A stretch of DNA of 64,000 nt from Escherichia coli (GTDB lineage Bacteria > Pseudomonadota > Gammaproteobacteria > Enterobacterales > Enterobacteriaceae): NCBI RefSeq assembly GCF_003991155.1, contig NZ_CP031294.1; one strand, 5' to 3'. Position 1 is the stretch's first letter, and each line of letters begins with the position of its first letter. A program made the position numbers and the translations under genes. Below are positions 21,809-22,584 of this stretch, piece by piece. Under the pieces are notes generated by a model that saw only the letters and a list, made by a program, of their open reading frames with translations, ran no database searches and was not told the DNA's origin.

Positions 21809-22584
21809 AATTCAGCACTGCCAGTATTTATTACTCAACAGTGCCAATCGCGGCGGTGTTAGTTTCTGCCAGGAAACGCACCGCTACTTGCACTTTCCGT
21901 TAGTGCCAGACGTTTTCGACTTCGCTCAATAGAAGGCAAAATCTTTAAGTAGATGATGTTTCTGAGGACAGCACCTACTTTGTAATTTATACAATGCGAT
22001 GTATGGAATCATTTGTTGTGAAAACAGGCACCAATGGCAACAGTGGTTAAACCTACACAACAATCCTGTCTTCACAACGTTGAGGCCACTACTCCGATTG
22101 AATGTTTGCCCAACATGTTACATATCAACGCTCGCCGGTATCTCTGTGAATAGAACCTTAGAATTGATACAAATGTAATGGCCTCAACGTTGTGTGCTGG
22201 CTAACCATACCAGCCGGGCTACGTCGCCGCTTTTTAACCCAGTATAAACGACATAATTGAACAAAATGACGTAACAGGATGGGCGGTCAGTGGCTAAGAA
22301 TCCGGGAGTCATATGGAGTTGAAAATATACCAACCGCCCATTCTGTTACTTCATCGGAGGGAACATGAATGTTCCCTCCTGCGTTCTGCAATCACACTCG
22401 CTCAGTGTGTCCCATTTCGGTAACGAGGCTGGAAACTGACCTCGCTGGTGTTTGGCTTATTAGGCTACTGCCAGATAGACTTCTTCGTTTGCACTTGTAT
22501 TTAAGTTCAAACAGTCGCGTCTCAACGAAAACAAAGTCATCTTATACATAAAAGATAAGTAAATAAATACTTATCATTGTATTT

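Follow-up and report, generated by a model that had tools for sequence, protein, structure and literature searches.

A palindrome in a tRNA-carrying phage-plasmid of Escherichia coli probably marks a helix of a predicted tmRNA-like RNA

Introduction

The first 64 kb of an SSU5-like phage-plasmid of Escherichia coli that carries tRNA genes (contig NZ_CP031294.1; this stretch of 64,000 nucleotides [nt], hereafter the window, is identical to positions 1-64000 of the E. coli plasmid pGF66.1-B, NZ_CP172196.1, 110,673 bp) contain a perfect palindrome at 22356-22379. It lies within a 776-nt gap (21809-22584) between a small minus-strand coding sequence (CDS; 22585-22875) and a cluster of four tRNA genes, and all the genes that neighbor it are on the minus strand. 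What does such a repeat do there? A first-pass annotation, made from the sequence alone, had read it as a high-affinity operator of a dimeric DNA-binding protein or, alternatively, as a strong hairpin. Our comparison with relatives points to the second: the palindrome is very probably an RNA helix of a minus-strand transcript, part of an RNA that resembles the coding half of transfer-messenger RNA (tmRNA).

Conservation of the palindrome as a hairpin

The palindrome reads cGGAGGGAACAT-GA-ATGTTCCCTCCt; its arms (22356-22366 and 22369-22379) are complementary at 11 of 11 positions across a 2-nt spacer, as had been claimed, although the range originally given (22355-22380) is one flanking base too wide on each side. 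Shuffling the dinucleotides of the window (60 times) leaves on average 0.15 perfect inverted repeats with arms of 11 or more and spacers of 0-10 (maximum 2), versus 10 matches at about seven places in the real sequence. The palindrome is not a product of chance, yet it is one among several such hairpins in the window. The gap holds no annotated CDS, and the plus-strand open reading frames (ORFs) that overlap it are not conserved in relatives, so its description as non-coding stands. The gap is also rich in long inverted repeats, and it folds much more stably than its shuffles (z = -6.8 for the minus strand and -9.8 for the plus strand). Folded as one strand, the repeat forms a 10-bp stem with a 4-nt loop (-14.0 kcal/mol). 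On the minus strand the 5' arm is GGAGGGAACA (22379-22370), the loop UUCA (22369-22366), and the 3' arm UGUUCCCUCC (22365-22356), a hairpin that RNAalifold predicts from 9 full-length homologues as well.

The region was aligned with six divergent relatives, including SSU5, a Yersinia pestis pMT1-type plasmid, Enterobacter, Klebsiella, and a distant Enterobacter sp. plasmid. The flanks of the hairpin, GAUUGCAGAACGCAG and CGAUGAAGUAAC, are nearly invariant, while the sequence between them has been rewritten with the hairpin retained. Among the collected viral contigs, 14 hairpin variants were found, each folding at -11.7 to -20.2 kcal/mol. Their arms are GGAGGGAACA/UGUUCCCUCC (with the loops UUCA, UGAA, UGAG or CUCA), GGAUAGGGCAUG/CAUGCCCUAUUC (around a 10-nt loop), GGAGAGGGCAUG/CAUGCCCUCUCC, GGAGAGAGCAUG/CAUGCUCUUUCC, GGUAGGGCA/UGCCCUUACC (with a bulge), or GGUGGC/GCCACC. 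The loop varies freely in its letters and from 4 to 15 nt in length, and the bulge is found in one lineage. In the alignment of these variants, 90.7% of the cells are paired versus 38-54% when the partners are slid, both sides have changed at seven of the ten pairs, and the covariation score of 0.503 (shuffle mean, 0.220) was reached by none of 500 shuffles. All five one-sided changes are G-U in the minus-strand sense, with no A-C, and the adjacent long helix (see below) shows about ten G-C/G-U alternations, likewise in the minus-strand sense. That G-C passes to G-U in this sense and never to A-C points to pairing within an RNA of the minus strand. Thus, the hairpin alternative of the first-pass annotation is borne out by relatives that keep the pairing though not the sequence.

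The doubt that had been expressed about a terminator is upheld, too. The bases following the palindrome are TGCGTTCTGC on the plus strand and GATGAAGTAAC on the minus strand, a T-run being present on neither. The 3' flank of the variants is CGAUGAAG in most cases and CGAUGAGG or CGAUGGGG in the remainder. A U-tract is absent from every variant, which argues against an intrinsic terminator, and the terminator scan was silent at the site.

A predicted structured RNA around the hairpin

From the homologues, a consensus fold and the folding of the gap, we predict a tmRNA-like structured RNA of ~338 nt at 22195-22532 on the minus strand. It runs from an invariant 5' GUUUUCG to a terminal hairpin just before the next spacer hairpin with its CACAAC base; its ends are inferred from the promoter spacing and from the start of the flanking spacer hairpins. 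The 32 distinct full-length homologues measure 335-354 nt, and their consensus fold has 87 pairs, 13 of them with compensatory change. Upstream, a sigma-70 promoter is predicted at 22539-22567 (minus strand; -35 TTTATT at 22567-22562, 17-nt spacer, -10 TAAGAT at 22544-22539), from which transcription would start near 22532. This promoter was read from the sequence and scores under the threshold of the promoter scan; the geometry is identical, though the letters differ, in SSU5 (TTTACT-17-TAAGAT), Klebsiella (TTTACT-17-TATGAT), Enterobacter CP102 (TTTACC-17-TATAGT), and the FelixO1-like Mooglevirus Michonne (TTGACA-17-TAAGAT). In every lineage with its own promoter, this ends 6-7 nt before the invariant GTTTTCG.

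The 5' half of the predicted RNA, which we call the core, folds around the stop codons of a short reading frame described in the next section. A helix CUGG/CCAG (22474-22471 with 22448-22445, minus strand) encloses these stops and is followed by a pseudoknot (22410-22474 with the stop helix, minus strand), in which the stem CGAGG/CCUCG spans 22444-22424 and its loop UUCCA (22434-22430) pairs with UGGGA (22414-22410). CP102 has CUCCA/UGGAG in place of UUCCA/UGGGA, a compensated exchange. The core was assessed on 16 non-SSU5 representatives, in which its helices and pseudoknot are 97.6% paired versus ~37% in slid controls, with eight covarying pairs. The helix between pseudoknot loop and downstream strand is 100% paired with two covarying pairs, and it switches from CCGA/UCGG to CCAG/CUGG or CCAA/UUGG, and to GUCG/CGAC in P1. 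In these representatives, helices CUGG/CCAG and UAGCC/GGCUA enclose the stop codon, which sits in the loop of a small inner hairpin. Other lineages continue with a second pseudoknot, whose stem 1 (CGCAC/GUGUG) has two covarying pairs.

In the SSU5 lineage, the core is followed in order by a CACACU/AGUGUG hairpin, the flagged hairpin, a 24-bp hairpin, and two more hairpins. The first of these (CACACU-GAGCG-AGUGUG, 22393-22409, minus strand) corresponds to stem 1 of the second pseudoknot of other lineages; it precedes a conserved GUGUGAUU, and in CP102 a C-G pair has become G-C (CAGACU/AGUCUG). In the other phage lineages, the place of the flagged hairpin is taken by the second stem of that pseudoknot; in bona fide tmRNAs, too, plain hairpins can stand in for pseudoknots. 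Directly 3' of it stands the long hairpin (repeat I2; 22266-22354, minus strand) with arms of 22-24 bp and a loop of ~45 nt that holds a conserved CCCGG. Compensatory change is seen at four to five of its 24 pairs, along with the many G-C/G-U alternations in the minus-strand sense. The two 3'-terminal hairpins (22196-22254, minus strand), UAUGUCG/CGACGUA at 22254-22219 and GCUGGU-AUGGUUA-GCCAGC at 22214-22196, are mostly invariant, so that conservation and folding, not covariation, speak for them.

The GUUUUCG at the predicted 5' end (~22526-22532) is invariant in nearly all of the 40 sequence clusters of the element. The heptamer is similar to a conserved box of tmRNA (GGAUUCGAC) and, in addition, complements the host tag codons ACGAAAAC. 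A role of GUUUUCG(U) as antisense to these codons found no statistical support: 8-11 bp can be drawn by eye, but RNAduplex finds them no better than shuffled leaders (z of -1.1 to +1.2).

A tag-like reading frame

About 80 nt upstream of the flagged hairpin on the minus strand lies the frame GCA AAC GAA GAA GTC TAT CTG GCA GTA GCC TAA TAA (22457-22492, minus strand), which would encode ANEEVYLAVA and two stops. It has no start codon and is preceded by an A-rich stretch; no in-frame start is conserved, and in relatives any longer frame is interrupted by an indel of 1 nt directly before it. We collected its relatives by two scans, the first being a pattern search of IMG/VR, while the second fixed codons 1 to 3 and a box that follows the tag, and left the later codons and the stop free. 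The 13 tag variants of the first scan, found in the 40 sequence clusters, are all of the form AN[DE]xx[YF]LAVA. In the second, all but one of the 159 loci (158) have the stop at codon 11, with UGA replacing UAA in 18 loci, and one locus adds the variant ANEEMYLAAA; the tag of P1 is ANDDLMMVAA. The variation is found mainly at third codon positions, which would be second positions in an AUG-starting +1 frame. Judged from these sequences, it is the pattern of a translated frame, and we infer translation of the tag from it.

Upstream of the GCA codon, the lambdoid, FelixO1-like, P1, and CP102 elements have AUAAAU and SSU5 has AUAACU, i.e., U(-5)A(-4), and the window has C(-5)A(-4), as compared by eye with E. 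coli tmRNA. In the latter, U85/A86 are the upstream U/A counterpart.

Two observations concern the stop. The 18 loci with UGA are FelixO1-like (the group of L139-L146, where L numbers denote the collected loci) and end in UGA UAG instead of UAA UAG. Locus L160 has the GCAAACGA opening and the post-tag box, with no in-frame stop (ANDVELWRERRL...).

Relationship to tmRNA

The frame invites comparison with tmRNA (SsrA; Rfam RF00023, RF01849, RF01850, and RF04321, including two-piece permuted forms). The E. coli SsrA frame, GCA AAC GAC GAA AAC UAC GCU UUA GCA GCU UAA UAA in the sequence that we fetched, encodes ANDENYALAA, which the phage ANEEVYLAVA resembles. Both RNAs have a GCA-opened frame that lacks a start codon and a Shine-Dalgarno sequence, and in both the tag follows the AND..Y.A.A pattern and ends in small hydrophobic residues. 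Compared by eye, the A-rich stretch before the frame, with the U(-5)A(-4) of most phage lineages though not of the window, may be a further likeness. Both also place the stop codon in a hairpin loop (compare helix 5 of tmRNA), followed by one or two H-type pseudoknots, and the SSU5-type RNA, at ~340 nt, is close in length to the 363 nt of E. coli tmRNA. The differences are considerable, however. The phage element has no detected tRNA-like domain (TLD) and no recognizable pseudoknot 1, its tag ends in LAVA or VAA instead of ALAA, it scores 14-30 bits with the Rfam models against gathering scores of 47-84, and it is carried by phages and phage-plasmids beside tRNA genes.

The TLD is the defining part of a tmRNA. 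Neither the window nor the remaining 46.7 kb of the plasmid nor the P1 loci yield a TLD (acceptor stem with G3-U70, T-arm, and 3' CCA) to ARAGORN at its default or 80% threshold; the program does find the E. coli ssrA used as positive control. A candidate at the 60% threshold is not credible, and the two default calls obtained from 132 contexts take in halves of genuine tRNAs nearby. In the window, T-loop motifs occur only within the four tRNAs. The loop of the long hairpin, UUCAACUCC, was rejected as a T-loop; it resembles that of E. coli but is not conserved. The terminal hairpin with CACAACG was likewise rejected as T-arm and acceptor strand, being not conserved in CP102 and without G3-U70.

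In the FelixO1-like contig L012, the tag strand has a circularly permuted tRNA-like arrangement ~530 nt upstream of the core. It consists of a T-arm (GAAGG-UUCGAUU-CCUUC), an acceptor 3' strand (ACCCUUC), GCCA, a 4-nt linker, an acceptor 5' strand (GAAGGGU), and a D-arm. ARAGORN built a "permuted tmRNA" call (tag ANDNVFLAVA) on its 3' half, and pair 3:70 is A-U, not G-U.

In the Rfam search, only sub-threshold matches were obtained in the gap, exactly on the tag stretch: beta_tmRNA at 14.4 bits (gathering 84) and tmRNA_permuted at 14.4 bits (gathering 47). The highest score of a tmRNA model, 29.9 bits, was that of Michonne, in a match that takes in the adjacent tRNA, and no Rfam family reaches its gathering score on the element. 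The tRNA cluster of Michonne is flanked by a DUF2828 "RNA-binding protein" (L003 4276-5111), which led us to consider a Y-RNA-like identity. This was discarded, as YrlA has no match on the element and its sole match (25.6 bits, gathering 69) lies over the P1 tRNA genes. Full-text literature searches, subscription literature excepted, returned no description of a phage tmRNA-like element or of its tag peptides, and a prior description is possible. From its sequences, the element appears to be an unannotated RNA family, of a form of the tmRNA kind that is apparently undescribed in the searchable literature. It would work in the manner of the coding half of tmRNA, its probable ancestor, but by the test of the TLD it is not a tmRNA.

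Among known phage RNAs, a close conceptual counterpart is the mini-tmRNA of mycobacteriophage DS6A, which consists of the TLD only and is reported to inhibit the host tmRNA when expressed in E. coli (PMC4131195, PMC11915505). There, too, one half of tmRNA is carried by a phage, but it is the opposite half: DS6A has the TLD without a tag frame, the present element has the tag frame and pseudoknots without the TLD, and sequence and host are unrelated. Complete phage tmRNAs are found in the mycobacteriophage Bxz1 group and in Bacillus phage G (PMC4131195). Like the element, they are phage-borne and accompany large tRNA sets; unlike it, they are found by standard tools, whereas ARAGORN and Rfam at normal thresholds miss the element. 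The direct homologue of the core in P1 lies in the leader of the ban operon ("dicF-like region" to trnA/trnT, NC_005856), before tRNA-Asn and tRNA-Thr and under the C1-controlled Pban. It differs in its tag and in having both pseudoknots, and neither the flagged hairpin nor the long 3' extension of SSU5-type RNAs is present in it.

Alternative explanations

The exact role of the flagged hairpin is most likely that of a fast-evolving, lineage-specific structural helix. The main rival to this role is a processing or termination signal, i.e., a pause or attenuation site, an entry site for RNase III or RNase E, or the protecting 3' hairpin of a shorter RNA ending near 22356. A stable G+C-rich stem inside a polycistronic RNA or tRNA precursor that needs cutting would suit such a function, and the neighboring hairpins of 22-24 bp resemble RNase III substrates and serve as spacers between mature RNAs. 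However, a stem of 10-12 bp is short for RNase III, the 3' flank CGAUGAAG is conserved and holds no U-tract, and strong conservation continues for ~160 nt further downstream, which argues against an RNA end at the hairpin. We consider this explanation distinctly unlikely.

An operator is more improbable still. The 24-bp dyad was proposed to be the high-affinity site of a dimeric regulator, for instance, the helix-turn-helix protein encoded at 16963-17349, and its symmetry is indeed perfect; moreover, symmetric changes in relatives could mimic the co-evolution of a protein and its site. Yet the half-site GGAGGGAACAT (22356-22366; perfect complement at 22369-22379) is confined to this site within the 64 kb, and its sequence is not conserved. 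The arms of the variants lie 4-15 nt apart, with a bulge in one lineage, which is incompatible with a fixed half-site spacing. G-U wobble is tolerated in one strand sense only, and the site lies ~150 nt inside a conserved RNA, predicted to be transcribed and structured, instead of at a promoter. Taken together, variable spacing, bulge, one-sense wobble, and unique half-site speak for an RNA helix on the minus strand and not for a dimer operator, and no link between the regulator at 16963-17349 and the site was demonstrated. The operator idea suits another repeat much better. The AT-rich palindrome ATAAGTA-N6-TACTTAT (I24; 22555-22574, strand-neutral) overlaps the -35 element of the predicted promoter of the RNA and has 14 matches with up to two mismatches in the window (0.28 expected; 14 reached by none of 100 shuffles), at 2271, 4224, 20059, 22555, 26071, 27300, 31338, 31454/31461, 41504, 54928, 60419, and 63960/63967. 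It is a candidate for, and probably is, a dispersed operator of the repressor of the phage-plasmid; the analogy is to P1, where C1 operators lie at Pban, upstream of the core homologue.

A plus-strand translational element has an almost negligible probability. A GGAGG at 22356 with an ATG at 22365 or 22369 could form a hairpin-masked Shine-Dalgarno sequence and start of a small protein, and the motif GGAGGgaacATGaATG and two ORFs (24 amino acids, MNVPSC...; 60 amino acids, 22369-22551) are present. Against this, the homologues of Klebsiella and Enterobacter CP102 lack the ORFs or have them disrupted, the Shine-Dalgarno-like letters are gone in SSU5 and pMT1 with the hairpin still there, and the neighboring genes, as well as the tRNAs near homologous elements, are all on the opposite strand. 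Equally remote is a cruciform or single-strand hairpin for replication, packaging or recombination: perfect palindromes can extrude as cruciforms and a phage-plasmid has replication and packaging functions, but duplex DNA would be hit equally by G-U-type changes of either sense and they are tolerated in one only, the RNA genes around the site form a cluster of one orientation with it, and no iterons, AT-rich unwinding region or site repeats were seen nearby.

Several points weigh against our own interpretation of the hairpin as a helix of a tmRNA-like RNA. The RNA, its ends, and its promoter are predictions. RNAalifold also offers an alternative, in which 22471-22474 (tag CUGGC) would pair with 22196-22200 (3'-terminal GCCAG). 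Further, a co-evolving dimeric DNA-binding protein could in principle also give symmetric co-variation of half-sites, and the counter-arguments (variable spacing, bulge, G-U without A-C, unique half-site) are indirect. The specific contribution of the hairpin, be it stability, processing or protein binding, is a proposal. Finally, the analogy to tmRNA breaks at the defining TLD, and the tag frame may not be read. As to the alternative fold, its long-range pairing would join CUGGC..UAGC..AGCC with GGCU..GUUA..GCCAG, in columns (61-81 with 341-359 of alignment A7) that hardly vary beyond one G-U and one A-G.

Distribution among phages and genomes

By BLAST, ~110-150 nt around the tag are common to unrelated phages. 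The homologue of HK620 lies between qut and the late terminator, and that of Michonne, preceded by its TTGACA-17-TAAGAT promoter, in the 248 nt that separate tRNA-Ile from tRNA-Arg. Klebsiella siphophages have a core homologue by BLAST, and contigs of ~155-160 kb were added by the later pattern scan. In P1, the homologue (L129 1500-1690; NC_005856 ~68.89-69.1 kb) follows the dicF-like region and its terminator, precedes trnA/trnT in the C1-controlled ban operon, and is unannotated. The pattern scan of IMG/VR gave at least 120 contigs with the core. Among complete E. coli genomes, the core of the lambdoid/P1 type is found in 689 of 5,426, with 733 records. A bacterial scan with one genome per species gave five matches, in four Enterobacteriaceae assemblies and one short Bacillota contig of a metagenome-assembled genome. 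A bacterial donor, i.e., a complete tmRNA with the phage tag, was not identified among these five matches, the contexts of which were unexamined.

The transcription unit and its neighborhood

Downstream of the tmRNA-like RNA, the predicted transcription unit would continue over 21077-22194 (minus strand) with spacer hairpins, four tRNAs, and a terminator. The tRNAs, all on the minus strand, are tRNA-Asn (21734-21808), tRNA-Tyr (21642-21728), tRNA-Thr (21562-21637), and tRNA-Ser (21251-21337), and a strong intrinsic terminator (21096-21077, minus strand) ends the cluster. Co-orientation is seen in the homologous loci as well: all 228 tRNAs within 1.5 kb of homologous elements are on the tag strand. 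The spacer hairpins share the base CACAAC...GUUGUG and lie, in plus-strand coordinates, at 22073-22194 (I4), 21478-21564 (I1), and 21171-21248 (I3). In lambdoid phages and P1, too, hairpins of this family border both the core and the tRNAs, their stems covary in L060 and P1, and they may be RNase III-type processing stems. In lambdoid phages, a pairing between the two flanks of the core was considered and set aside, as the covariation in L060 favors flanks that belong to separate spacer hairpins.

Each spacer hairpin fills the stretch from the 3' end of one RNA, either a tRNA or the tmRNA-like core, to the start of the next. The base in lambdoid phages and P1 is GGUAAGAGCAUUG-insert-CAGUGCUCUUUCC (L002, L129, and L047-L061). 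In the lambdoid loci L049 (upstream of the core), L060 (downstream), L094, and L123, spacer hairpins combine a canonical T-arm, GGGUUCGAAUCCC, with a single further arm and have no D-arm. These elements are tRNA-like minihelices with an extended acceptor stem of 12-13 bp, and ARAGORN calls no tRNA in them.

In the wider neighborhood, translation-related cargo includes a methionine-tRNA ligase (metG) at 78417-80450 of the plasmid record (L138 14417-16450). The plasmid also encodes a 702-amino-acid CobT-family protein (window 14292-16400). In the Y. pestis plasmid pG8786 (pMT1 type, L005), the tmRNA-like RNA is kept, and the place of the tRNA cluster downstream is held by caf1R and caf1M of the F1 capsule locus.

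Proposed role and significance

We propose that the palindrome is the DNA image of a stem-loop (10 bp, loop UUCA) in a minus-strand transcript. The transcript would be a ~338-nt non-coding RNA of SSU5-like phage-plasmids, with its own promoter, just upstream of and co-oriented with four tRNA genes. Its 5' half would be a tmRNA-like "mRNA-like domain", made of a GCA-opened frame of 10 codons, a stop-codon hairpin, and a pseudoknot right after it, and the flagged hairpin would keep the 3' half folded and nuclease-resistant. As a best guess, the RNA would interfere with or re-program host trans-translation during phage development. Given that the TLD-only RNA of DS6A inhibits tmRNA, a partial tmRNA can be an inhibitor, and by analogy the RNA may be a decoy or inhibitor of the factors that bind this part of tmRNA, a counterpart of the DS6A form. 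Alternatively, it may serve as a coding piece that ribosomes translate with the help of a tRNA-like partner in trans. Such a reading is favored by the protein-type conservation of the start-less frame, but no partner was found. A split, phage-programmed trans-translation, with the partner coming from the host tmRNA/SmpB machinery or from an unrecognized phage RNA, seems to us unlikely. If true, stalled ribosomes would resume on a phage template and truncated proteins would gain AN[DE]xx[YF]LAVA (ANDDLMMVAA in P1) instead of the host degradation tag, so that phages would change the fate of these proteins during infection.

Taken alone, the palindrome is an ordinary RNA stem-loop; its follow-up exposes a conserved, unannotated RNA family that spans well-studied enterobacterial phages, namely P1, HK620 (in the late leader), FelixO1-like phages, and phage-plasmids of the SSU5/pHCM2/pMT1 type. 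It also cautions annotators that structured RNAs reside in the "non-coding" gaps beside tRNA clusters of phages. A tmRNA coding module without the TLD is the mirror image of the TLD-only phage form, and a frame that appears to evolve like translated sequence raises the question of whether phages tamper with, or borrow, the ribosome rescue of their host, a question that the genetics of P1 makes directly testable.

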